Source: a virus. From it: a stretch of 31,092 bases of DNA. Below are positions 4,084 to 31,092 of this stretch, one piece after another. The notes under the pieces were generated by a model, which saw only the letters and a list, made by a program, of their open reading frames with translations, ran no database searches and was not told the DNA's origin. The stretch is taken from the UHGV virus genome UHGV-0204578, one strand, 5' to 3'. The position numbers were made by a program, and so were the translations under genes. How positions within the stretch are numbered: the stretch's first letter is position 1; every line of letters starts with the position of its first letter.

Positions 4084-4507
4084 GTTTCACCGTCCACATT
4101 TCTTCAGGTTCATCGGGTTCTGCTACAGCTTCAACGCTCGACACACTGCCGTCAGTACTGACCAGCACACGTTCCGTCAATTGCAGGTTAAGGCTGATAT
4201 CACAGACATCGTTGCGCAAAATATCCACCTCAAAGGTGAATAGCTTTTCCCGTAACGCCGGGTTATTGATGGCATCGGGCTGGTTATCCCGAAGCCACAG
4301 TAAAACCGGGGCCATCAACAGATTCTGGTCGCCGCTGAAATCCTCAACCACCACGTTCAGGGTGTAACGATACTCCCATGACATGGAGCTGGCCCCTGTA
4401 GCAACCAGCGAACCGTTATCCACAAACAGATGCAGTTTGTCCGGGTTATTGCGGACATAAGGCACCGCTTTATTGAGGGCGTGGCGCAGGGATTGTGGTT
4501 TGTTCAC
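4076..4507 (-). CDS. R: Tail completion protein gpR (start at internal GTG)
   Basis: ORF 4076..4528; GTG at 4507 gives MNKPQSLRHAL..., paralleling P2 gpR MLKPDSLRRAL...; preceded by CAGGAGC. Confidence 0.75.
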   Translation of the reverse strand: MNKPQSLRHALNKAVPYVRNNPDKLHLFVDNGSLVATGASSMSWEYRYTLNVVVEDFSGDQNLLMAPVLLWLRDNQPDAINNPALREKLFTFEVDILRNDVCDISLNLQLTERVLVSTDGSVSSVEAVAEPDEPEEMWTVKRG

Positions 4508-4760
4508 TATTTCGCTCCTGACACGCAATAATCATGTCCACTTTATCTGCACAGACCGCCCAGGCGGCCTCAGTTTCATCCAGCAACGCATTCAGATCAC
4601 CGTTAGTGCGCGGTGCTGCCTGCTCCAGCCGACACGGCGTCACTCGCGGACAACCACTGACGGTAAGCTGCACCTCCGGTGAGTGCCGGACGTTCCCGCA
4701 GCCGGATAATGTCAACAGGCAAAGGAGTATCAGCCCAGTGGCGTAAATCCTCGTTCTCAC
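4470..4760 (-). CDS. lysC: LysC (Rz1-like outer-membrane lipoprotein spanin component), nested out of frame in lysB
   Basis: 96-aa ORF with signal peptide and lipobox (LLTLSGCG), embedded in the 3' part of lysB in another frame as in P2. Confidence 0.7.
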   Translation of the reverse strand: MRTRIYATGLILLCLLTLSGCGNVRHSPEVQLTVSGCPRVTPCRLEQAAPRTNGDLNALLDETEAAWAVCADKVDMIIACQERNSEQTTIPAPRPQ

Positions 4761-8610: not shown

Positions 8611-9444
8611 TCAGCAATTGGTCAGAGTGTCAACGGGGGCGTTACCGCCTGTTGCACGCTGGCGGTAGTCCTGGCGGCTGTCTTCATGACTCAGCTTGTC
8701 CACCAGTTCGTTAAAGGCGGTTTGCTGTACCTGCAGGGCAGTCTCCAGCTCAGACAGGCGTTCTTCCTGCTCAGACAGGGATTTTTCGGTGCGTGCGCTC
8801 AGGTTCTGCTGCTCAGTGGCGACCAGCTCCACGGCCTTATGCACATCAGAGAACCGGGCGTCATCGGACTGCTCTTTTTTGGTAAACAGCGCCGTGACGC
8901 GGGCAAACAGGGACGGTTTGTCGTCCTGGATTTCTTCCAGTTCGATCACCGTTTCCTCTGCAGCGGTAAAGAGATTGGCAGGATTCTGCTTGCGGTTTGC
9001 CAGTGGGTTATGGGCTGCACTGGCGCTGAATGTCAGCATTTCAGTGCCCAGACTGGCAGGGTCATCAGTGGCAGCCAGGCCGACCAGGTAGGCTTTGCCC
9101 GTATCAGCGAACTTCGGGCTGACTTCCATAGAGGTGAATAATTTCTGGCCTTTTTTCACCAGTTCCACCAGGGACTCCGTTGGCTCAACGTCGGCATACA
9201 GCGCCATCTTGCCTGCCAGCGGACCTTCCGTGATTTCTTCAGCAAACAGCGCCGTCACCTTGCCGTAGCGGTTAAAGGTGCTGTCCGGCAGATAAGACTT
9301 GATGTGCTCAAGGTTAATCAGCGCGGTATACACCGCCGGGTTGTAGCTGGCTGCCATCTGTTCCAGCCATTCACGCTGGATTTCGCGTCCGTCGGTGGTG
9401 GCACCTTCCACCCCGATGCGAAAACGCTTTGCTTTCACTGTCAT
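8611..9444 (-). CDS. O: Capsid scaffolding protein gpO
   Basis: 277-aa ORF with acidic coiled-coil C-terminus; P2 gpO-like; first gene of the leftward late operon. Confidence 0.9.
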   Translation of the reverse strand: MTVKAKRFRIGVEGATTDGREIQREWLEQMAASYNPAVYTALINLEHIKSYLPDSTFNRYGKVTALFAEEITEGPLAGKMALYADVEPTESLVELVKKGQKLFTSMEVSPKFADTGKAYLVGLAATDDPASLGTEMLTFSASAAHNPLANRKQNPANLFTAAEETVIELEEIQDDKPSLFARVTALFTKKEQSDDARFSDVHKAVELVATEQQNLSARTEKSLSEQEERLSELETALQVQQTAFNELVDKLSHEDSRQDYRQRATGGNAPVDTLTNC

Positions 9445-19761: not shown

Positions 19762-20787
19762 ATGACCATCAGAAAACAGCCGAACGGAAAGTGGTTATGT
19801 GAATGCTACCCAAACGGGAGAGATGGCAAACGCGTACGCAAACAATTTGCGACGAAAGGCGAAGCCATTGCGTTTGAGAATTTCACCATGGATGAGGTAA
19901 ACAAGAAACCTTGGCTGGGAGAAAAGGAAGATCGGCGACAACTGTCAGAAGTGATTGAGCAATGGTATTCCCTGTACGGTCAGACACTCGCTGACCCTAA
20001 GCGATTAATGGCTAAGTTAAAAATCATTTGTAATGGACTTGGCGATCCCATCGCTTCTGAATTGACAGCAGGTGATTTCACAAAGTACCGGGAAGCCAGA
20101 TTAAAAGGTGAGGTCAAAAACGAAGATGGCGTGCTCATGTCACCGGTTAAGCCCAGAACGGTGAACCTTGAACAGCGTAACCTATCCTCAGTTTTTGGCA
20201 CACTGAAAAAGCTGGGACATTGGTCTGCACCCAACCCCCTCGCCGGTCTGCCAACTTTCAAAATTGCAGAAGGTGAACTGGCGTTCCTTGCTGCTGATGA
20301 AATCAAACGCCTGCTTGACGCATGTGCTGAATCTCAAAGTCCCAGTCTGCTAATGATTGCCAAGATTTGCCTGGCTACCGGGGCAAGATGGAGCGAAGCC
20401 GAAAACCTGCAAGGTAACCAGATATCAAAGTATCGAATTACCTATACCAAAACAAAAGGAAAGAAAAACCGAACTGTTCCTATTTCTCAGGAACTGTATG
20501 AAGAATTACCCAAAAACAGAGGAAAGTTATTCACACCATGCCGAAAGGCTTTTGAGCGTGCGGTAAAACGAGCTGGAATTGAACTACCTGAAGGTCAATG
20601 TACCCACGTTCTGCGCCACACTTTCGCCAGCCACTTTATGATGAACGGCGGAAACATTTTGGTATTGAGGGATATTTTAGGACACGCTGATATTAAAATG
20701 ACCATGATTTATGCCCATTTTGCACCTGATCATCTGGAAGATGCCGTTACCAAAAATCCACTTCATAACCTCAACTGGCATCGCTAA
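19762..20787 (+). CDS. int: Tyrosine integrase (P2/186 Int family)
   Basis: 341-aa ORF with C-terminal catalytic region HVLRHTFASHFMMNGGNILVLRDILGHADIKMTMIYAH (R..H..R..Y signature); reads toward the att core. Confidence 0.9.
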   Translation: MTIRKQPNGKWLCECYPNGRDGKRVRKQFATKGEAIAFENFTMDEVNKKPWLGEKEDRRQLSEVIEQWYSLYGQTLADPKRLMAKLKIICNGLGDPIASELTAGDFTKYREARLKGEVKNEDGVLMSPVKPRTVNLEQRNLSSVFGTLKKLGHWSAPNPLAGLPTFKIAEGELAFLAADEIKRLLDACAESQSPSLLMIAKICLATGARWSEAENLQGNQISKYRITYTKTKGKKNRTVPISQELYEELPKNRGKLFTPCRKAFERAVKRAGIELPEGQCTHVLRHTFASHFMMNGGNILVLRDILGHADIKMTMIYAHFAPDHLEDAVTKNPLHNLNWHR

Positions 20788-20904: not shown

Positions 20905-20949
20905 ATGTAGGAATTTCGGACGCGGGTTCAACTCCCGCCAGCTCCACCA
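20905..20949 (+). other. ssrA: att core: 45-nt copy of the 3' end of the tmRNA gene ssrA (fragment only)
   Basis: ATGTAGGAATTTCGGACGCGGGTTCAACTCCCGCCAGCTCCACCA matches the E. coli ssrA 3' terminus from memory. Sequence upstream is integrase coding/AT-rich arm DNA, so the full gene is not here. Confidence 0.75.
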
Positions 20950-21060: not shown

Positions 21061-21114
21061 ATTGGTATACGTTTAGGTATACGGTAGGATGTATACCTAA
21101 AAACGTATACCAAT
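21061..21114. promoter_or_regulatory. Inverted repeat of a 22-bp motif (ATTGGTATACGTTTAGGTATAC) upstream of the satellite integrase; candidate Int arm sites or int operator
   Basis: Arms at 21061..21082 and 21091..21114 are near-perfect reverse complements; a third copy (one mismatch) lies at 30515..30536. Confidence 0.5.
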
Positions 21115-21133: not shown

Positions 21134-22327
21134 GTGGCACGGACAACACGCCCCCTTACCAACACCGAAGTTCTGCGCGCTAAGGCGTTAGAGAAGGATC
21201 TAACGCTGCACGATGGCGACGGGCTTTTCCTGATAGTGAAAACTAGTGGCAAAAAGCTCTGGCGCTTTCGCTATCAACGTCCGGTAACAAAGCAGCGGAC
21301 AATGATGGGGCTCGGTGCCTTCCCCGCCCTATCGCTTGCTGATGCCCGAGGATTAAGAGCGGATTACCTTGCCTTATTAGCCAACGGACTCGACCCGCAA
21401 ATTCAAACTGAAGTTGCAGAGGAACAGCAGCAAATAGCACTGGACAGTATTTTTTCAACGGTCGCCGCTAACTGGTTCCAGCTCAAAAGCAAAAGCGTTA
21501 CCCCTGATTACGCAAAAGACATTTGGCGCTCACTGGAGAAAGATGTATTCCCTGCCATCGGTGAGATCCCCGTTCAGCAAATCAAAGCACGGACACTGGT
21601 TGAAGCTCTTGAGCCAATCAAAGCTCGTGGGGCGCTTGAGACTGTACGTCGACTGGTGCAGCGCATTAACGAGATAATGATTTATGCCGTAAACACTGGC
21701 CTGATTGATGCTAATCCAGCATCAGGTGTTGGGATGGCCTTTGAGAAGCCCAAAAAACAAAACATGCCGACGCTTCGGCCAGAAGAGTTACCAAAACTCA
21801 TGCGTTCTTTGGTGATGTCAAATCTCTCTGTTTCGACTCGCTGTTTAATTGAATGGCAACTCCTGACGCTTGTGCGCCCTTCTGAGGCCTCCGGTGCTCG
21901 TTGGGCAGAAATCGATCTCGATGCAAAGCTTTGGACTATTCCAGCCGAACGGATGAAGGCGAAACGTGAGCACATAGTTCCTCTCTCAACTCAGGCATTA
22001 GAGATTCTCGAAGTGATGAAACCAATCAGCGCTCACCGTGAACATGTTTTTCCCAGTAGGAATGATCCAAAACAATCCATGAATAGCCAAACAGCTAATG
22101 CAGCTTTGAAGCGTATAGGATATGGAGGAAAATTAGTTGCACACGGTTTACGATCTATTGCAAGTACTACATTGAATGAAGCGGGCTTTAATTCAGATGT
22201 GATAGAAGCGGCATTAGCTCATACAGATAAAAATGAGGTAAGAAGAGCATATAACCGCTCTATCTATTTAAAGCAAAGAATAGGCATGATGGAATGGTGG
22301 GGTGAAAAAGTTTATAATAAAAACTGA
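21134..22327 (+). CDS. int: P4-family integrase (IntA-like tyrosine recombinase)
   Basis: 397-aa ORF, GTG start with AAGGAG 8 nt upstream; N-terminus MARTTRPLTNTEV...DGDGLFLIVKTSGKKLWRFRY typical of P4/CP4-57 integrases; sits about 185 bp after the ssrA 3' end as intA does in E. coli K-12. Confidence 0.9.
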   Translation: MARTTRPLTNTEVLRAKALEKDLTLHDGDGLFLIVKTSGKKLWRFRYQRPVTKQRTMMGLGAFPALSLADARGLRADYLALLANGLDPQIQTEVAEEQQQIALDSIFSTVAANWFQLKSKSVTPDYAKDIWRSLEKDVFPAIGEIPVQQIKARTLVEALEPIKARGALETVRRLVQRINEIMIYAVNTGLIDANPASGVGMAFEKPKKQNMPTLRPEELPKLMRSLVMSNLSVSTRCLIEWQLLTLVRPSEASGARWAEIDLDAKLWTIPAERMKAKREHIVPLSTQALEILEVMKPISAHREHVFPSRNDPKQSMNSQTANAALKRIGYGGKLVAHGLRSIASTTLNEAGFNSDVIEAALAHTDKNEVRRAYNRSIYLKQRIGMMEWWGEKVYNKN

Positions 22328-22366
22328 AAAAAAAATAAAAGCTCATTCTTATGAGCTTTTATTTTC
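22328..22366. terminator. Bidirectional intrinsic terminator between int and the cargo operon
   Basis: Hairpin aaaagctcat-tctt-atgagctttt flanked by an A-run on one side and a T-run on the other. Confidence 0.65.
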
Positions 22367-22964
22367 CTGCATTACCTTTCGAATTATCAGCATCCTGTTT
22401 ATTTTGAAAAGTCATAAAGGTATTATACCAACTAGAAACACGGAATATAGCAAGAACAGCTGCTAATGCAGAGAATACTGAGTAAATAAATATAAAGTAA
22501 GCAAAAAAACTAAATATTAATAACGCATACTTATAGAAAACACCTAAATAATAATACATAAAAGCATTATTTATGAGAATACTACTATAGGCCTTGGTAA
22601 CCAAGGCCGTAATAATAGTTAGTAATTGCAACAATATAAAATGGACAAAAGTTGCATTGACTGACATATAAGGAGAATATTCTACTTCCCCACTTTCACT
22701 TTTTTCATCACCAGTTATTATTTTTTTAAAGGCCTCATCACCAATAGCTATCCACATAGCAAAACCACCTAATGAAAAGCCCAGAAGGTTCGGCATCAAT
22801 GACAGGATATCATTCCACCACCCCTGATGAGACCAAGATGGATAAAGAATCACTGTCATTAAAAAAGCACACCAAAAATAGCGACTTTTAAACACAGCCC
22901 CAGCGCCACCATAGATTTTCCAGTATCTAGCCAATGCACTGGTTGATTCTTTTTCTTCACTCAT
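22359..22964 (-). CDS. Uncharacterised integral membrane protein (201 aa, about 4 TM helices); downstream gene of cargo cassette
   Basis: Hydrophobic segments YFWCAFLMTVILYPSW, ILSLMPNLLGFSLGGFAMWIAIG, VHFILLQLLTIITALV, YALLIFSFFAYFIFIYSVFSALAAVLAIF; start overlaps the upstream gene stop (TAATG); AT-rich. Confidence 0.7.
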   Translation of the reverse strand: MSEEKESTSALARYWKIYGGAGAVFKSRYFWCAFLMTVILYPSWSHQGWWNDILSLMPNLLGFSLGGFAMWIAIGDEAFKKIITGDEKSESGEVEYSPYMSVNATFVHFILLQLLTIITALVTKAYSSILINNAFMYYYLGVFYKYALLIFSFFAYFIFIYSVFSALAAVLAIFRVSSWYNTFMTFQNKQDADNSKGNAGK

Positions 22965-23893
22965 TACTTTCTCAGAAGCCTCTTAAATTCATCTGCTAAT
23001 GATTTTGCCCTTAATAACAATAGCTCAGAAACCGATGTTACGTCAGAATCATATGGTTCGACCCTTTGAAGTGGTACGTCACTTGAGGCATGAACCTCTA
23101 CTAATCCCGCCTCATTAATCCTGCGTATACTAACTTCACCATTTCTCGAAGCAATAAGAGCATCCTGTTTTAACTCACCATCAGGTTTAATTTCCTGACC
23201 TCGCTCAGATTTATATGTTTTATCCTCTTCAATAACCCCAATACGCTTGAAGCGCTTTTGCATAACATTTTCTGCAGAAGCGAGATCATCCGGATTAGGA
23301 CGTCGAGTGACCATATTTATACACGTAATACCTTTTAAAGAAAGCATACGTTCTACACTATCTGGCTCAGTCAATATTGTAACATTAACCTTTCCAAATT
23401 TCTCTATAATTCTCTCGTGAGAAAATATCCCATTCAGAAAGCTTTCTATTTGTCTTGGTGTAAGATGCCGGCTCTTGTCCTGCATTTCGTAAACTAAAAG
23501 ATGACTTGCGGGTAGAAAAACAAAAGAGAATCTAGCTACATTTGGTTTTAAATTATCAGGTATATTTATTCTTTCCTTTTCCTCATCTGAAGCTATATCT
23601 TTCTTTACGATATCGAACCAGTCGCCATTAACGTCAATATCTGTATACTTTAGAATTTCCCCCTCAAAAGGTTCACTAATTACCTGACCTTTCTTATAAG
23701 GATAAAAATATGATAAAGTTGCGAATGAGTCTCCTCTTAAATTAACATTGCTCGCATTTTTTCTTGCCATCCTGAATAACTCGACATACTTTTCTGGCGA
23801 GTGGGGGTGCATGGATATATTCACAGCCCCGTAAGTTAATTTTTTTGCCCTTGCCATTTTTATCTTTGTTCCCTTATTTCGTGAAAGAATCAT
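22964..23893 (-). CDS. Uncharacterised soluble protein (309 aa; 297 aa if start is ATG at 23857); upstream gene of cargo cassette
   Basis: Intact AT-rich ORF with no TM segments and no catalytic motif I recognise (no Walker A, no GS..DxD nucleotidyltransferase motif, no HxH); translationally coupled to the membrane protein gene. Confidence 0.7.
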   Translation of the reverse strand: MILSRNKGTKIKMARAKKLTYGAVNISMHPHSPEKYVELFRMARKNASNVNLRGDSFATLSYFYPYKKGQVISEPFEGEILKYTDIDVNGDWFDIVKKDIASDEEKERINIPDNLKPNVARFSFVFLPASHLLVYEMQDKSRHLTPRQIESFLNGIFSHERIIEKFGKVNVTILTEPDSVERMLSLKGITCINMVTRRPNPDDLASAENVMQKRFKRIGVIEEDKTYKSERGQEIKPDGELKQDALIASRNGEVSIRRINEAGLVEVHASSDVPLQRVEPYDSDVTSVSELLLLRAKSLADEFKRLLRK

Positions 23894-24078
23894 ATATACA
23901 TGAAAGGCTTAGGGAAAACTATGTCTTAACGCACACCATCTAATAGCCAAAGGAAATAAAAATACAATTCATTATTCAAAATGGGAATATTATTTCCTCC
24001 ACGGATAATGCTCATTGGTTCCACTACCAGATTCGTAAAAATTAAAAAAACAACATCCAAGAACAGCGCGCAATGCTC

Positions 24079-24100
24079 TCCCCGCCACGCCTGCCCGCTT
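24079..24100. other. cos site of the P4-type satellite, identical 22-mer to the helper cos
   Basis: TCCCCGCCACGCCTGCCCGCTT identical to 12560..12581; flanks also similar (ttttaatgcaggtgcatga versus ttttcatgcacctgcatga). Located between cargo and psu, where P4 cos lies. Confidence 0.6.
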
Positions 24101-24264
24101 CTTGGGGCGCTTTTAATGCAGGTGCATGAAGTGGCTCAGGCCGCGCCGCGACTGGCGCTGGTCGGGAGTACAGGAGCGGGAAAACGCATGCAAAACCATG
24201 CACCCTTTGGATGCATGGCTTAATTCGGGAAAAATGGCGGGAATTACGAGGATTTTTTGACAGG

Positions 24265-24831
24265 TTACGGCGCGGCCAGTTCGGCGCGTCGACGGGTGTA
24301 AATCATGCTCTGTGCAGGGGTGAATTTTTCACGATTATCATCCCGCGAAGGCGCGTCAGGCCTGTATCCGATGGCCGTTAAAATATCGCTATCCTGTGCC
24401 GAATAATTAATTTCATTTCCTGCGGCCAGCCAGACGGAAAGAGCTTCTCGCAGGTATGCTACTGAACGGTCAAGCGCACGGTTTTTTATCATCGTGGGCT
24501 GGTTCTTAATTCCCATCAGCTCGGGTGCCAGTGCGGCGGCCAGCTCCGCGCCGTTCTGCTGCATAAAATCGTACAGCCGGTTACGGATGCTGATGCGCTG
24601 CACCTCCTCATGCGAGGAAATGTAGCGACCGGCGGCCTGATTAATCTCCCATTTTTTTACGTCAATAATATCTCGCAGCGTCTGTAATCTGCGGGAACCT
24701 GATGCGTTGTCATCCAGCAATAATTCCTGATATTCCTGTTCTGCGGCGGTCAGTTCGGCTTTACAGTTCAGCCACGCCGTTTTGTTCGTCTGACAGGCAT
24801 CGAACGCCTGCTGTAAGGTCAGGGTGGTCAC
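24265..24831 (-). CDS. psu: Psu (polarity suppression / capsid decoration protein)
   Basis: 188-aa ORF (GTG start) with strong similarity to P4 Psu (..LQQAFD.CQ.NK.AWL..K.EL.AAEQEY..NQAAGRYI.SHE.VQ.ISIR.RL.DFMQQ..). Confidence 0.85.
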   Translation of the reverse strand: MTTLTLQQAFDACQTNKTAWLNCKAELTAAEQEYQELLLDDNASGSRRLQTLRDIIDVKKWEINQAAGRYISSHEEVQRISIRNRLYDFMQQNGAELAAALAPELMGIKNQPTMIKNRALDRSVAYLREALSVWLAAGNEINYSAQDSDILTAIGYRPDAPSRDDNREKFTPAQSMIYTRRRAELAAP

Positions 24832-24847
24832 GGGTTGTCTCTCCTGA

Positions 24848-25093
24848 TTAATGGTGGAACGGTGAGCTGTAGCAGCTTTTTACCCGGCGGGGTGTAACGG
24901 GTACTGTCGGCACCGGTGCGGGTTTCTCATCGACGACCGGGGAACGGATCACCTCAAAGATGGACTCATGCGTTTTGAATGTCGCCGAGCAGTGCACATT
25001 CTGGCACTGGAGGTAACTCTCTTTGACGCTGTCAGACATATAGCGGCTGGTGCGAACGTGGGCCGCTGTGCGACAGAAAGGGCAGCGCATCAT
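24848..25093 (-). CDS. delta: Delta/Ogr-family zinc-finger late-gene activator
   Basis: MMRCPFCRTAAHVRTSRYMSD...YLQCQNVHCSATF mirrors P2 Ogr (CPLCQHAAHARTSRY...HQCQNVNCSATF). Confidence 0.85.
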   Translation of the reverse strand: MMRCPFCRTAAHVRTSRYMSDSVKESYLQCQNVHCSATFKTHESIFEVIRSPVVDEKPAPVPTVPVTPRRVKSCYSSPFHH

Positions 25094-25827
25094 GACAGTA
25101 ACCCTCGTGCTTTCAGATCGGCTTCACGTTCCTGCATTTTTTCCTGCCAGACTTTTCGCTGACCGGGCGTGGCCGCAACGTCATGCTCCATATGTGGCAG
25201 CGTGGAGGCCGCCAGCCCTGTTTTAAAAAGCACTGGTTCATCAGTCAGACGGATATTGCAGTCCTTCACCGCCTGCTCAAGCCATGATTTCACCTTATGC
25301 ATAACGGCATGCTCTGGTTCGACATAGCCCTGATGCCCGATGGTGTTGGCAAGCGGATTTTCTTTAACCAATATGCTGAGTTTCATTGCTCTAACGAGTG
25401 CGCCGCAGGTTTCACGTAGGGCGGCATCGAGTTCATGCTCTGCATACTGGCTGAGTACGCCGTGATGCGCCTGACGGTATGTTCTGGCCGTGCTGTCACA
25501 GGCTCCCCGAAGGCTGTCCAGCTCGAAAGACAGCACCTCAGCCATGTTGTCACATTCCAGTGCCAGCTCCCGCCGTGCCACGCGCGCAATATGGCGTTGT
25601 TTCAGCTCGTCGGTAATGACAGCACCACCGGCACGAAAGGCGGTGCGCCATGCACCGGAATCATTGCCGTTTTCCTGCTCCAGTTCAGTTTTTTGCGTTT
25701 TCACCTGGCTGATGGCCGTCGTGGTTTCGTCCATGCGTCGGGCATTGGTCAGATGTGCTTCTCTGGCCGTCTCAAGACTTTCTATTGCGGGTTTAAGGTA
25801 GTCGGGAATAACAGCGGTCTGAGTCAT
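25090..25827 (-). CDS. sid: Sid (capsid size determination external scaffold)
   Basis: 245 aa from ATG at 25827 (GAGGAGA RBS); position and length as P4 sid, upstream of delta and psu; helical, Gln/Glu-rich. The track ORF start at 25893 is an upstream extension. Confidence 0.75.
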   Translation of the reverse strand: MTQTAVIPDYLKPAIESLETAREAHLTNARRMDETTTAISQVKTQKTELEQENGNDSGAWRTAFRAGGAVITDELKQRHIARVARRELALECDNMAEVLSFELDSLRGACDSTARTYRQAHHGVLSQYAEHELDAALRETCGALVRAMKLSILVKENPLANTIGHQGYVEPEHAVMHKVKSWLEQAVKDCNIRLTDEPVLFKTGLAASTLPHMEHDVAATPGQRKVWQEKMQEREADLKARGLLS

Positions 25828-25899
25828 GTCGGGTCTCCTCTTCGTTTCAATCTGAGGAGATTCTGCCGCGCCGGACACAACAACACGATTCATTGCCGT

Positions 25900-25917
25900 T
25901 GTGGCAAAAATGGCACA
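25900..25917 (-). promoter_or_regulatory. Psid late promoter activator site (TGT-N12-ACA)
   Basis: tgtggcaaaaatggcaca centred about 81 bp upstream of the sid ATG; same dyad type as the helper late promoters. Confidence 0.6.
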
Positions 25918-26004
25918 AACAGACCTTAAAACCCGGCTGGCCAGAGAAAGGTCTCATGAAAACATTACTCACCGTTTGTTTTTTTACTTATAACTATTCA
26001 CTAC

Positions 26005-26114
26005 TGTTCACTGAAAAGAAAAAGATAAGTAATACAGTAAGTTAAAGGGTGAACAGTTGAAGGTCTGACTGTTCACCGTCTGTTCACCACTGTTCACCTT
26101 TCAGTTTGTTCAGC
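26005..26114. repeat. Iteron cluster (TGTTCACC type), candidate alpha-binding ori/crr element
   Basis: Exact TGTTCACC at 26070, 26081 and 26091 (10 to 11 bp spacing), inverted GGTGAACA at 26048, degenerate copies at 26005 and 26107. TGTTCACC is the P4 type I iteron. Confidence 0.65.
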
Positions 26115-26367
26115 CAGTCAGCCACTTAGACTTTTTGGCGATTAAAAAACAGAAGTATATAAACAAAAGTAATCAGCAATGGGCCACCGGTTTGCCAACG
26201 TTTGCCAAAAAACGGCCAACGTTTGCCACTGTATAAAAATCGCTCTGTTGTGTGGTGGAGTACTACAAAATGACTTGTTGCCCTGAGGGAAAATATTCAC
26301 AAAATAGAGAGCTACCCGAAGCCGGACGGACACGACCGGCACTGTATGGACTTTGTGAGGTAGCCCG

Positions 26368-26634
26368 ATGCACACCGTTTTTTCTTCCCCGTCTTCTGCC
26401 CCTGCCGCGCCGCTGATGCCGGTTTCTGATACCGTTCACGAACGCTTTATCCGTCTGCCCGAAGTGATGCATCTGTGCGGCCTGTCCCGCTCGACCATTT
26501 ACGACCTCATCAGCCGGGAAGCCTTCCCGAAACAAATCTCCCTCGGCGGAAAAAATGTGGCGTGGGCGCAGTCTGAAATCACTGCATGGATGGCGGATCG
26601 CATTGCCGAACGTAACCGGGGCTATGACGCATGA
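26368..26634 (+). CDS. alpA: AlpA/Vis-family small DNA-binding regulator
   Basis: 88-aa ORF with the AlpA-type HTH segment [49 protein letters not shown]. Confidence 0.75.
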
Positions 26635-26761
26635 TGATGATCGCTCAGCAAACAGCCCCTTTTTCTGGCTTGCTTCTTTTCGCCATTTCCAGGTATAGTT
26701 TTCCCGCTGTCGCAAAATCGACAGCCGGGCGTGGAAACCCGAGCAACTCGAAGGCGACACC

Positions 26762-26785
26762 AGACGCGCCATGCGTCTTTTTTTG
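26762..26785 (+). terminator. Intrinsic terminator inside an untranslated leader
   Basis: agacgc-gccat-gcgtct hairpin followed by TTTTTTT, in the roughly 400-bp gap between alpA and the next RBS-bearing start. Confidence 0.55.
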
Positions 26786-27032
26786 TGTCGCAACTAACGC
26801 CACAGAGCGCCAGATAATGGCGTGGTGTGCGGATCGTCGTGCAGACGTCACTTTGTGTCTCCTGTCCGCAATCGCATATCATGCTGTCATGTCAATGGTA
26901 GCTCAGGCGGGGCAGCCCTCGGGCTGGCCGGTATTCTTCGAGGCCGGTATTTCCACCCCCGTCTGGGCTATCGCCACTGAGCGTGGAAACTCCGGCGATA
27001 GCAATAATTTGCTACTCGAAGGAGGTTGCCTT

Positions 27033-27227
27033 ATGGCTACGACCCTCACCCCGTCACAGCCTCAGTTTGTCTTTGTGTTTGCCGCCGTCCGTCGTGCAGA
27101 CCGTAAGCCCCGTATCTGTATGCTCCGCACCGTTGCCGGTGACGAGCACGCCGCACGTCTTTCCCTCGTTCGCGATTACGTCCTCTCGTTCGCTGGCCGT
27201 CTGCCGGTTGCGGAGGTGCGCGCATGA
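27033..27227 (+). CDS. Hypothetical small protein (64 aa)
   Basis: ATG at 27033 preceded by AAGGAGG (7-nt spacing). The upstream in-frame 134 codons of track ORF 26631..27227 contain the terminator, look non-protein-like and are rejected. Confidence 0.5.
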
Positions 27228-27451
27228 GACACACCACCATTACCGCCCGTGACCTCGAATGCCTTGAGCACATGCGCAACGTCGGCCAGCTCGTCAATGA
27301 GCTGATGCAGGTGCAGGACTGTACGGCCGTTCGTCGTGACCCTGCTCAGCAGTCACAGCTCACCTCCGTGATTTACCTTATGACCGCCCAGCTCGACGGC
27401 GTGGTTGAGCGCTGCAATCAGCACTGGCTGACCGGGGAGGGCAACGTATGA
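27224..27451 (+). CDS. Hypothetical small protein (75 aa)
   Basis: ATGA-coupled to the previous ORF, GGAGGTG RBS. Confidence 0.55.
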
Positions 27452-27768
27452 AACAGCCATTACCGCCCGTATTACGCGCCGCGCTGTATCGTCGCGCCGT
27501 GGCCTGTGCATGGCTGACGGTGTGCGAATGCCAGCACCGCTACCCGCACCTCACCCTCGACGCGCTGGAAAGCGCCATTGCCGCCGAGCTGGAGGGCTTC
27601 TATCTGCGCCAGCACGGCGAGGAAAAGGGCCGTCAGATTGCCTGTGCATTACTGGAAGATTTAATGGAAGCCGGGCCACTGAAAGCCGCGCCGTCACTGT
27701 CCTTTCTCGGGCTCGCGGTGATGGATGAACTTTGCGCCCGTCACATCACATCGCCTGTACTGCACTGA
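27448..27768 (+). CDS. Hypothetical protein (106 aa)
   Basis: ATGA-coupled to the previous ORF, directly upstream of alpha. Confidence 0.55.
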
Positions 27769-27782
27769 GGGAGAAAATAACA

Positions 27783-30116
27783 ATGAAAATGAATGTAACG
27801 GAAACCGTAAAACAGGCCTGCGGCCACTGGCCGCGCATTCTCCCGGCGCTGGGTGTGAAGGTCATTAAAAACCGCCATCAGGCCTGCCCGGTATGCGGCG
27901 GCTCTGACCGCTTTCGCTTTGACGATAAAGAGGGGCGCGGCACGTGGTTCTGTAACCAGTGCGGCGCGGGTGACGGCCTTAAACTGATTGAGAGGGTATT
28001 CGATGTATCTGCCTCAGAGGCCGCCCAAAAGGTGAATGCTGTCACCGGCAACCTGCCGCTGGTTGCCCCGGAGGTGATTGCGGCCGCAGAGGCTGAAACC
28101 GATGCCGACCGCAAAGCGGCGGCCGAGCTGGCCGTAAAACTCATGGAGAAGACCCGCACGGCTGCCGGCAATGCCTACCTGACCCGCAAGGGCTTCCCCG
28201 ATAGTGAATGTGTGATGCTGACGGCCACACATAAAACCGGCGGTGTGACGTACAGTGCCGGGGATTTGGTTGTTCCGCTGCATGACCATTCCGGCGCGCT
28301 GGTTAATCTTCAGCTTATCAATGCTGAGGGTCTCAAACGCACCCTGAAAGGCGGCGCGGTGAAAGGGGCATGCCATATCATCGAAGGGCAGAAACAGGCA
28401 GGAAAACGCCTGTGGATAGCAGAGGGCTATGCAACAGCACTCACCGTGCATCACCTGACTGGCGAAACCGTCATGGTGGCGCTGTCGTCCGTGAACCTTC
28501 TTTCTCTGGCGAGCCTTACCCGACAAAAGCACCCGGCCTGTCAGATTGTCCTCGCCGCCGACCGCGACCTCAGCGGGAACGGCCAGACCAAAGCCGCAGC
28601 GGCTGCACTGGCTTGTGAGGGCGTTGTTGCCCTGCCGCCGGTATTTGGTGACTGGAATGATGCGTTTATGCAGCAGGGTGAGGACGCCACACGCAAAGCT
28701 GTCTATGGTGCCGTCCAGCCAGCCACACAAAGCCCGTTCGACACCATGAGCGAAGCCGAATTTACCGCCATGAGCGCCAGCGACAAGGCTTTGCGGGTAC
28801 ATGAGCATTACGGCGAAGCGCTGGCGGTGGATGCGAACGGCCAGCTCCTGTCCCGCTATGAAAACGGCATCTGGAAAAATATCCCTGCCGCCACTTTTTC
28901 ACGGAATGTGGCTGATTTATTCCAGCGCTTACGCGCCCCGTTCTCATCCGGGAAAATCGCCTCGGTGGTGGAGACCCTGAAACTGATTATTCCGCAGCAG
29001 GATACACCTGCGCGCCGTCTGATTGGTTTTCGTAACGGGGTGCTGGATACCCAAAGCGGGATATTCAGCCCACACAGCAAATCGCACTGGCTGCGCACCC
29101 TGTGCGATGTGGATTTTACCCCGCCGGTGGACGGGGAAACGCTGGAGACGCACGCGCCGAACTTCTGGCGCTGGCTCGACCGTGCGGCCGGTAAAAATCC
29201 ACAAAAACGCGACGTGATTCTGGCCGCGCTGTTTATGGTGCTGGCGAACCGTTACGACTGGCAGCTCTTTCTCGAAGTCACCGGTCCCGGTGGAAGCGGT
29301 AAAAGTATTCTGGCCGAAATTGCGACCCTGCTCGCCGGGGAAGATAACGCCACGTCAGCCGATATCGACACACTGGAAGACCCGCGCAAGCGTGCCTCCC
29401 TGATTGGCTTCTCGCTTATCCGTCTGCCAGACCAGGAAAAATGGAGCGGTGACGGCGCAGGACTTAAGGCCATCACCGGCGGCGATGCGGTCTCAGTTGA
29501 CCCGAAATACCAGAACCCATACTCAACACATATTCCGGCGGTGATTCTGGCCGTGAACAACAACCCCATGCGCTTCACCGACCGCAGCGGCGGTGTGTCG
29601 CGCCGCCGGGTGATTATCCACTTCCCGGAGCAGATTGCGCCGGAGGAACGCGACCCGCAGCTCAGGGATAAAATTGCGCGCGAGCTGGCCGTGATTGTGC
29701 GCCAGCTTATGCAGAAATTCAGCGACCCGATGACTGCACGCGCACTGCTCCAGTCGCAGCAGAACTCCGACGAGGCACTCAGCATCAAGCGCGATGCTGA
29801 CCCGACGTTTGATTTTTGCGGCTATCTGGAAATGCTCCCGCAGACCAACGGGATGTTTATGGGGAATGCCAGCATCATCCCGCGTAATTATCGTAAATAT
29901 CTCTATCATGCGTATCTGGCCTATATGGAGGCCAACGGATACAGAAACGTGCTCAGCCTGAAAATGTTCGGGCTGGGGCTGCCCATGATGCTGAAAGAGT
30001 ACGGCCTGAATTATGAGAAGCGGCACACCAAGCAGGGGATACAGACTAACCTGTCGCTGAAAGAGGAAAGCTACGGCGACTGGCTGCCTAAGTGCGACGA
30101 ACCCACAGCGATATAA
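27783..30116 (+). CDS. alpha: Alpha primase-helicase (P4 alpha family)
   Basis: Starts MKMNVTETVKQ... (GAGGGAG RBS), giving 777 aa, the P4 alpha length as I remember it. N-terminal zinc-binding primase motif CPVCGGSDRFRFDDKEGRGTWFCNQCGAGDG; Walker A GPGGSGKS in the helicase domain. Confidence 0.9.
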   Translation: MKMNVTETVKQACGHWPRILPALGVKVIKNRHQACPVCGGSDRFRFDDKEGRGTWFCNQCGAGDGLKLIERVFDVSASEAAQKVNAVTGNLPLVAPEVIAAAEAETDADRKAAAELAVKLMEKTRTAAGNAYLTRKGFPDSECVMLTATHKTGGVTYSAGDLVVPLHDHSGALVNLQLINAEGLKRTLKGGAVKGACHIIEGQKQAGKRLWIAEGYATALTVHHLTGETVMVALSSVNLLSLASLTRQKHPACQIVLAADRDLSGNGQTKAAAAALACEGVVALPPVFGDWNDAFMQQGEDATRKAVYGAVQPATQSPFDTMSEAEFTAMSASDKALRVHEHYGEALAVDANGQLLSRYENGIWKNIPAATFSRNVADLFQRLRAPFSSGKIASVVETLKLIIPQQDTPARRLIGFRNGVLDTQSGIFSPHSKSHWLRTLCDVDFTPPVDGETLETHAPNFWRWLDRAAGKNPQKRDVILAALFMVLANRYDWQLFLEVTGPGGSGKSILAEIATLLAGEDNATSADIDTLEDPRKRASLIGFSLIRLPDQEKWSGDGAGLKAITGGDAVSVDPKYQNPYSTHIPAVILAVNNNPMRFTDRSGGVSRRRVIIHFPEQIAPEERDPQLRDKIARELAVIVRQLMQKFSDPMTARALLQSQQNSDEALSIKRDADPTFDFCGYLEMLPQTNGMFMGNASIIPRNYRKYLYHAYLAYMEANGYRNVLSLKMFGLGLPMMLKEYGLNYEKRHTKQGIQTNLSLKEESYGDWLPKCDEPTAI

Positions 30117-30125
30117 CCTACCTCA

Positions 30126-30149
30126 GACCGGCAACAGCCGGTCTTTTCC
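30126..30149 (+). terminator. Intrinsic terminator after alpha
   Basis: agaccggc-aaca-gccggtct followed by TTTTCC. Confidence 0.6.
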
Positions 30150-30168
30150 TTTCTGGCCATTGCCACAG

Positions 30169-30455
30169 GGTGAACAATCCACTGCTCACCCTTCACCGTA
30201 TATTCACCCTGTATCACCATGAAATTATTGATAAAAAACCAGAGGTGAACAGTGTGAACAGTAAAACCTGAAAAAACTTTTTATCACCCCTCACATCGCC
30301 TGAGCGGACGGTTCCAGAACGAGCACAAATCACAAAGGTGAAGAGTCGACTGTTCACTCTTCACCAACCATTCACCACTTATCATTATGATATTAAAAAG
30401 AAAAAAAGAGAGGTGAACAGTGTGAACAGTTAAATGCAAAAAAACTTTTTTTTAA
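30169..30455. repeat. Two tandem ~168-bp repeats, each carrying TGTTCACC-type iterons (crr-like cis replication region)
   Basis: Units starting near 30169 and 30337 are clearly homologous; GAGGTGAACAGTGTGAACAGT occurs in both (30242 and 30410), with several TTCACC/GGTGAA half-iterons. Confidence 0.65.
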
Positions 30456-30514
30456 TGCGTTCCATTCAAAAAAACAGGTTTGCAAAACCAAAGTAAACAC
30501 TACAGCAAATCGCC

Positions 30515-30536
30515 ATTGGTATACGCTTAGGTATAC
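30515..30536. repeat. Third copy of the 22-bp GGTATAC-containing arm motif near the satellite right end
   Basis: ATTGGTATACGCTTAGGTATAC; one mismatch to 21061..21082. Confidence 0.5.
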
Positions 30537-30735
30537 AACTGAAAGTTGAATTGATAAATATTCAATAAAATCAAAATATTGAGAAAAATTTTCAGACTCC
30601 GCCAGCCCAATCATGATTGGACGGTGTAAGGACAACACCAACAAAAACAGGAAGTTAGAAGTCTCAGCAAAACACCGACCAGACGGTGAGGAGACATAAA
30701 AGGATACGCAAAGGAGCCGCGGCTCCTGGTAACAT

Positions 30736-30760
30736 GAAAGCCCACAGATGTGGGCTTTTT
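30736..30760. terminator. Intrinsic terminator between satellite end and flanking gene
   Basis: aaagcccaca-gat-gtgggcttttt; 10 bp downstream of the stop of the minus-strand flanking gene. Confidence 0.6.
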
Positions 30761-30769
30761 CGTTGATGG

Positions 30770-31092
30770 TCAGAACGACCAGTTCACACCAGCTACCGCG
30801 TTCCACGGGGATTCCACACCGGCACTATGGCTATACCCCACCCCAAGATGCCCGCTTAACGTACTGCTGAATGAGGCTTTAATACCTGCCTGGTATATTC
30901 CACGTCTGCCCGACAAATAATTGACGAAATTACCGTCACTATTCACTTTCACCCGGTTATCATCGACAAATTCTTTGCGCACAGCCGCCTTCAGCCACGG
31001 CTCAACTTCCATGCCGTTCCCCAGACGCATGTTGTAACTCAGCGTTGCGCCCAGTTCACGATATATACTGCGGGTATCGACTGATTTCGATT
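30770..31092 (-). CDS. 3' end of a probable outer-membrane beta-barrel / autotransporter gene (5' part beyond window end)
   Basis: Frame stays open upstream of the track M to the window edge (my translation ...SVDTRSIYRELGATLSYNMRLGNG...). C-terminus ...VGYSHSAGVESPWNAVAGVNWSF ends in an aromatic-x-F beta-barrel signature. Confidence 0.45.
   Translation of the reverse strand, partial: SKSVDTRSIYRELGATLSYNMRLGNGMEVEPWLKAAVRKEFVDDNRVKVNSDGNFVNYLSGRRGIYQAGIKASFSSTLSGHLGVGYSHSAGVESPWNAVAGVNWSF

Follow-up and report, generated by a model that had tools for sequence, protein, structure and literature searches.

Two clusters of TGTTCACC-type iterons in UHGV virus genome UHGV-0204578 (31,092 nt; "the window" denotes this entire stretch) very probably represent ori and crr, the two halves of the bipartite origin from which a P4-like satellite prophage would replicate. 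The original prediction had likened the pair to the P4 origin, and both clusters indeed align base for base with annotated P4 elements. It had left open which cluster is which; judged by these alignments, the cluster downstream of alpha (30164–30451) corresponds to crr and the one in the sid/alpA region (25995–26098) to ori, of the type called ori1 in the P4 literature. The reading draws on the homology of both regions to P4, on how many iterons there are and how they are placed, oriented and spaced, on an apparently intact alpha with its DNA-binding domain, on a Cnr that likewise appears intact and on family-wide iteron conservation, all as read from sequence comparison. The system as such is already known, its two-part origin having been worked out in phage P4 decades ago, and the window holds one further P4-like copy that appears to be intact.

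Architecture of the two iteron clusters

Exact TGTTCACC occurs eight times in the 31-kb window against 0.99 copies expected, at least eight copies being reached in none of 100 shuffles. Seven of the eight fall in the two clusters (26048, 26070, 26081 and 26091; 30169, 30244 and 30412). With up to one mismatch to TGTTCACC, 10 sites lie within 260 bp (30169–30428), where the remainder of the window would predict 0.35 (Poisson P ~5e-12), and five lie within 104 bp (25995–26098; 0.14 expected, Poisson P ~4e-7). The clusters are separated by ~4.16 kb start to start (26005 to 30169), slightly less than the distance of about 4.3 kb given initially. The features of both regions are listed below; where no strand applies, none is given, and the strand of each iteron stands in brackets.

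25995–26098: ori; aligns with P4 ori type 1 repeats 9310–9413, with the same spacing as in P4 (10, 43, 22, 11 and 10 bp); six type I iteron positions at 25995 (+) TATTCACT, 26005 (+) TGTTCACT, 26048 (-) TGTTCACC, and 26070 (+), 26081 (+) and 26091 (+) TGTTCACC
26013–26047: AT-rich stretch of 35 bp inside ori, between iterons 2 and 3; 77% A+T versus 48% in the whole window
26190–26229, + strand: three GTTTGCCA repeats (starts 26190, 26200 and 26221) at the place of the three "ori type 2 repeats" of P4
30125–30150, + strand: t-alpha, Rho-independent terminator of alpha; 8-bp stem with 6 G-C pairs, then a T run; aligns with annotated P4 t-alpha 4604–4628
30164–30451: crr (cis replication region); aligns with P4 crr 4291–4590 at 84% column identity; blastn match to X05623 and X51522, both of which annotate crr here
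30164–30284: crr repeat A (alpha-proximal), counterpart of P4 repeat 4471–4590; type I iterons 30169–30176 (-) TGTTCACC, 30183–30190 (+) TGCTCACC, 30201–30208 (+) TATTCACC, 30244–30251 (-) TGTTCACC and 30253–30260 (-) TGTTCACA
30332–30451: crr repeat B (alpha-distal), counterpart of P4 repeat 4291–4410; type I iterons 30337–30344 (-) TCTTCACC, 30351–30358 (+) TGTTCACT, 30369–30376 (+) CATTCACC, 30412–30419 (-) TGTTCACC and 30421–30428 (-) TGTTCACA

The imperfect direct repeats predicted downstream of alpha are real. A repeat search returned one family of two 114-nt copies (30169–30282 and 30337–30450) that are 77% identical and start 168 bp apart, and the 21-mer GAGGTGAACAGTGTGAACAGT, quoted beforehand as common to both, is present exactly at 30242–30262 and 30410–30430. 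While the 168-bp period of the presumed tandem repeats thus holds, a full tandem array does not: 30164–30451 consists of two diverged units of ~120 bp and a unique, unrepeated spacer of ~48 bp, so that "tandem" is only loosely right. On visual inspection, the DNA after unit B bears no resemblance to the spacer, and Tandem Repeats Finder, run on 29900–31092, returned no 168-bp array, only 9-bp GTGAACAGT doublets. The five iterons of either unit have the same offsets as in P4 (0/14/32/75/84); among all ten, three are exact, six carry one mismatch and one carries two. The region follows closely upon alpha, the order being alpha stop codon (ending at 30116), terminator, crr, and then an arm-type repeat and attachment (att) core at 30515–30609.

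In the ori cluster, the three exact, helically phased copies on the same strand were found as predicted at 26070, 26081 and 26091, in steps of 11 and 10 bp. The cluster itself had been placed at 26005–26114; it exists, with limits better set at 25995–26098, which adds the degenerate TATTCACT at 25995 and drops TGTTCAGC at 26107–26114, a site that has no P4 counterpart. Four of the six iterons match exactly; another deviates at one position and the last at two. The AT-rich stretch between iterons 2 and 3 is near-identical in P4 and strongly conserved across loci with alpha homologues.

Comparison with P4 ori and crr had been set beforehand as a test of the idea, and as both regions align, the idea stands. 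In blastn searches against phage records, window positions 27451–30451 matched P4 (X51522, 4291–7300, minus strand) with 80% identity, a span that on P4 takes in ORF106, alpha, the alpha terminator and "crr (cis required region for replication)" with its two 120-bp direct repeats; a separate match covered the sid/ORF88 region. Pairwise alignment of 30110–30480 with the reverse complement of P4 crr gave 84% identical columns, and alignment of 25890–26380 with the P4 ori region placed each of the "ori type 1 repeats". For all 16 type I iterons annotated in P4, the window holds a counterpart with the same orientation and internal spacing; of these counterparts, seven are free of mismatches, another seven show a single one and the remaining two show two.

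As in the window, P4 crr directly follows alpha and its terminator and is built of two ~120-bp direct repeats with five type I iterons each, in the same order and orientation and at the same offsets. The units are 168 bp apart in the window versus 180 bp in P4, because a 14-bp hairpin (CGGCAGAATGCCG) of the P4 spacer is missing in the window. Three crr iterons of the window (TGCTCACC, TGTTCACT and CATTCACC) are one base off their P4 equivalents, and P4's own crr iterons are likewise degenerate. P4 ori shares with the window the six iteron positions at identical spacing, the 35-bp AT-rich stretch and the location between sid and ORF88/alpA. In P4 all six copies are exact, whereas the two outermost ori iterons of the window read TGTTCACT and TATTCACT. 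Loss of a single ori iteron reportedly inactivates ori1. A second P4 origin, ori2, has been reported inside alpha.

A further difference concerns the three 10-bp type 2 repeats of P4 ori, in whose place the window has three copies of the 8-mer GTTTGCCA within the intergenic stretch. P4 positions 9176–9205, which hold the type 2 repeats, map to window positions 26203–26232, where the sequences are unrelated, and repeats of the P4 type (CTTTAAGTGG) are absent from the window. Among 67 related loci, 12 carry at least two GTTTGCCA copies upstream of alpha and none carries at least two copies of the P4 type 2 sequence. Loci with at least two GTTTGCCA copies mostly encode an AlpA that is at least 88% identical. 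We rejected a clean co-variation of GTTTGCCA with AlpA, as several loci with 97–98% identical AlpA have no copy, leaving only a loose correlation. The type 2 repeats reportedly lie outside the minimal ori1, and for this reason we do not treat them as defining. Scanned for promoters, the ori region yielded no sigma-70-like site; this carries little weight, since the late promoters in the sid/ori region of P4 depend on an activator.

Two other readings of these regions were dropped. Scans for tRNA, for tmRNA (ARAGORN) and with Rfam gave no structured RNA in either cluster, the Rfam matches being confined to 26693–26978, where the C4 antisense RNA, its a1/b1 targets (c4-a1b1) and isrK are found; we take this stretch to be the P4 CI-RNA immunity region. 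Small open reading frames (ORFs) across crr (30092–30271, +; 30284–30439, -; 30393–30806, -) are not regarded as genes, as conservation tracks the iteron blocks. In the two E. coli records inspected, no gene is annotated between alpha and the following feature.

The satellite and its chromosomal setting

The genes around the two clusters are those of a P4-like satellite:

21134–22327: int (Pfam)
24265–24831: psu (Pfam)
25090–25893, - strand, transcribed away from ori: sid (capsid size determination); 67% identical to P4 Sid over 239 aa
26368–26634, + strand, transcribed away from ori: alpA; Pfam Phage_AlpA, E = 3e-20; clearly similar to P4 ORF88 side by side
26631–27227: ash (Pfam)
27448–27768, + strand: P4 ORF106 homologue; 92% identical to P4 ORF106; Pfam DUF5375, E = 6e-64
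27783–30116, + strand: alpha (primase, helicase and origin-binding protein); 777 aa from MKMNVTET; 84% identical to P4 alpha over 775 aa

ORF106 of P4 is Cnr, the copy-number regulator that acts on alpha, and ORF88 of P4 is Vis. Alpha contains zinc ribbon, Toprim, D5_N, DUF5906 and Pox_D5 domains (Pfam), and its residues 671–770 (nt 29793–30092) are identical to the P4 origin-binding domain (PDB 1KA8) at 94 of 100 positions. Across the family, the DNA-binding domain is not more conserved than the helicase core. Delta is represented by an 81-aa protein of the Ogr/Delta type, half the size of P4 Delta, both halves of which it matches. All seven P4-like core genes are hence present in canonical order (int, psu, delta, sid, alpA, ash, alpha), the set described as the core of P4-like satellites (PMC13586616). 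The hotspot between int and psu (22359–23893, - strand) holds two cargo genes, encoding a 309-aa DUF4747 protein and a 201-aa protein without Pfam match. PADLOC gave no match for the two cargo proteins; from their location, they may be an undescribed defence pair.

Window positions 20905–20949 repeat the final 45 nt of E. coli ssrA without mismatch. The 250 bp after 20949 match E. coli NCTC10973 at the ssrA-int junction of an element with 94% identity that is flanked by ssrA and ypjA, and the right flank (30456–31092) is 99.4% identical to the ypjA region of the same strain. The satellite therefore extends from ~20950 to ~30600 and, judged by these matches, occupies the ssrA 3' end of an E. 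coli-type chromosome. Crr adjoins an ssrA-type attachment module in the window versus a leuX-type module in P4. CP4-57, at ssrA in E. coli K-12, is also a P4-like satellite prophage.

A repeat, ATTGGTATACGYTTAGGTATAC, i.e., ATTGGTATACG(T/C)TTAGGTATAC, is present near both satellite ends (21061–21082 and 30515–30536) and, by analogy with the annotated arm repeats of P4 attP, is probably an integrase arm-type site. The putative attR core (~30591–30609) matches the attL core (20927–20946) imperfectly, with 85.7% identity over 21 nt. Between crr and ypjA, positions 30599–30760 are 84–86% identical to phage records, one of which, Escherichia phage LLS, annotates the sequence as "tmRNA pseudogene". 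Rfam and ARAGORN detected no tmRNA in the window; the segment is probably an old att remnant of the ssrA site.

Upstream of the satellite, the window contains another prophage (1–20904, with int at 19762–20787), of which positions 87–20768 are 95.5% identical to 35.5-kb Klebsiella phages of the Kp4849-2 type. The ORF sizes of these phages and the Salmonella/Felsduovirus matches suggest that it is P2-like. It ends at the 45-nt copy of the ssrA 3' end, and the satellite begins directly after; a helper-type prophage and a P4-like satellite are arranged in tandem at the same ssrA site.

Conservation and variation among related elements

We surveyed 80 loci with alpha homologues (57–94% identical) from other Enterobacterales, 64 of which had enough upstream sequence to look for ori. 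An ori cluster was found in 60 of these 64, ending 1.5–2.5 kb before the alpha start (median 1.67 kb), and a crr unit directly after alpha (36–69 bp) in ~40 of the 80. In alignments of 67 crr units and 62 ori segments, iteron columns were 90–99% conserved, compared to 30–60% for the columns between them. Such a contrast is what selection on protein-binding sites would be expected to leave, whereas a coding region or a recent duplication would show another pattern. The degenerate TATTCACT is itself the family majority at its ori position.

The A-type crr units of other elements reach up to 99% identity with the A unit of the window or that of P4, whichever is nearer. In one example element, the A unit reaches 99% and its partner B unit 89% identity to the nearer window or P4 units, versus 72% for the window's own A against its own B. 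A and B units are thus each closer to their counterparts elsewhere than to each other, and both are therefore old and separately maintained. Relatives with two units space them by either 166–168 bp or 177–181 bp, with none between. The two classes (~167 and ~179 bp, or ~16 and ~17 helical turns) could reflect a phase constraint for alpha-mediated looping; a single inherited 14-bp indel is the simpler reading.

Of 5426 complete E. coli genomes, 1138 contain DNA resembling crr, which is chromosomal in every case; none was found on E. coli plasmids. P4-like satellite prophages of Enterobacterales are likewise chromosomal (PMC8628076, PMC10085698). In the E. coli entries inspected (about 12–13), neither ori nor crr is annotated; 11 have no feature at the crr match, and two have only a "hypothetical protein" there. 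The published surveys of P4-like satellites deal with proteins and leave ori and crr aside (PMC8628076, PMC10085698), the terms "crr" and "origin of replication" each occurring zero times in the former; the non-coding origin has therefore been left unannotated in genomes.

An element of E. coli CUVM53, located at tRNA-Leu, has a different integrase and a SIR2-family cargo gene. Compared with window positions 24066–30451, its stretch from psu through crr is 94–97% identical, and crr is 100% identical over 335 bp. The similarity stops exactly at 30451, the distal end of crr, and the border between crr and the att site thus marks a boundary between modules. In 10 of the 80 loci, ORFs of 123–595 aa lie downstream of alpha, either between alpha and crr or between proximal and distal crr-type units that are 1.2–2.3 kb apart. 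These ORFs are unannotated; one, of 595 aa, begins with a P-loop-like motif. Their positions fit a minor defence hotspot described as "primase to att site", for which the place of insertion relative to crr units was not described (PMC13586616). Because ORFs lie beside or between crr units in these 10 loci and the CUVM53 similarity ends at the distal crr edge, one might speculate that crr also serves as a junction for module exchange and cargo insertion in P4-like satellites, an idea that we consider rather doubtful. Were the repeated alpha-binding units to promote such recombination in their own right, crr would drive the modularity of the satellites.

A model for replication and its alternatives

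Based on the likeness to P4, we suggest that the C-terminal winged-helix domain of alpha would bind the TGTTCACC-type iterons of ori and crr, and that the two alpha-loaded sites would be joined by looping of the ~4.2 kb between them. The helicase of alpha would open ori at the 35-bp AT-rich stretch, where the primase of the same protein would begin bidirectional synthesis; crr would be needed in cis without being the site at which synthesis starts. Cnr, encoded just upstream of alpha, would modulate DNA binding by alpha and in this way limit copy number. Alpha binding, looping, the requirement in cis and the action of Cnr are all reportedly part of the P4 model. P4 alpha binds the origin repeats via its winged-helix domain, then unwinds and primes (PMC4234260). 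Alpha binding, looping, the initiation site and continued replication of the present element would follow by analogy. Against an origin of the P4 kind one can hold that two of six ori iterons deviate (TGTTCACT and TATTCACT), that seven of ten crr iterons are mismatched, that the units are spaced by 168 bp and that the P4 type 2 repeats are absent.

The satellite may be a defective prophage. Ori and crr could then be present by descent in a decaying element and no longer support replication, which we regard as unlikely. Only four of six ori iterons and three of ten crr iterons are exact, the satellite measures ~9.7 kb versus 11.6 kb for P4, delta is half-size at 81 aa and the attR core has degenerated, with 85.7% identity to that of attL over 21 nt, as decay would have it. 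However, alpha, cnr, sid, psu, alpA, ash and int are all intact ORFs with high identity to P4, and the deviating iterons follow the family consensus, unlike the outcome of random decay. The identical crr in the otherwise different element of CUVM53 moreover argues for recent spread.

Separate iteron clusters are also known from iteron-type plasmid origins such as those of P1, F and R6K, which share with the present arrangement clustered 8-bp initiator-binding repeats at the origin and a second, distant site. The initiator differs, being a fused primase, SF3 helicase and winged-helix protein here, whereas the plasmids are Rep/DnaA-dependent. In many iteron plasmids, iteron clusters away from the origin exert negative copy-number control. 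By the same token, crr might act mainly negatively, titrating alpha or handcuffing ori to cap copy number, instead of being a required positive part of the origin. The conservation of Cnr beside alpha would be compatible with such a role, as would the many relatives with a single unit or with units displaced by 0.7–2.3 kb, which indicate that dose and position are flexible. Yet P4 crr is annotated as, and named for, a requirement in cis for replication; P4 replication in vitro needs both ori and crr on the template, the distant cluster being required and not merely inhibitory; and most close relatives retain some crr-type cluster. A mainly negative crr thus seems quite improbable. That the repeats downstream of alpha are instead arm-type sites for the integrase or excisionase of the nearby attachment site, with crr ~140 bp from the putative attR core and ~65 bp from the arm-type repeat, can practically be dismissed, as that repeat (ATTGGTATACGYTTAGGTATAC) differs in sequence and lies outside crr, the crr motif is the one found in ori ~4.2 kb away, and CUVM53 has an identical crr with another integrase and attachment site (tRNA-Leu), the similarity ending at 30451.

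Taken as the bipartite origin of a P4-like satellite, the two clusters carry small biological weight, confirming a textbook origin in one more P4-like prophage. Mildly new are the variation in crr copy number and spacing, the ORFs beside or between crr units, and the lack of ori and crr annotation in genomes. The iteron architecture could serve as a rule for annotating origins, with crr given as five sites at 0/14/32/75/84 and ori as six sites at 0/10/53/75/86/96, and it could help to separate replication-competent from decayed satellites. The conservation profile of the family, finally, provides a map of the bases likely to be contacted by alpha.
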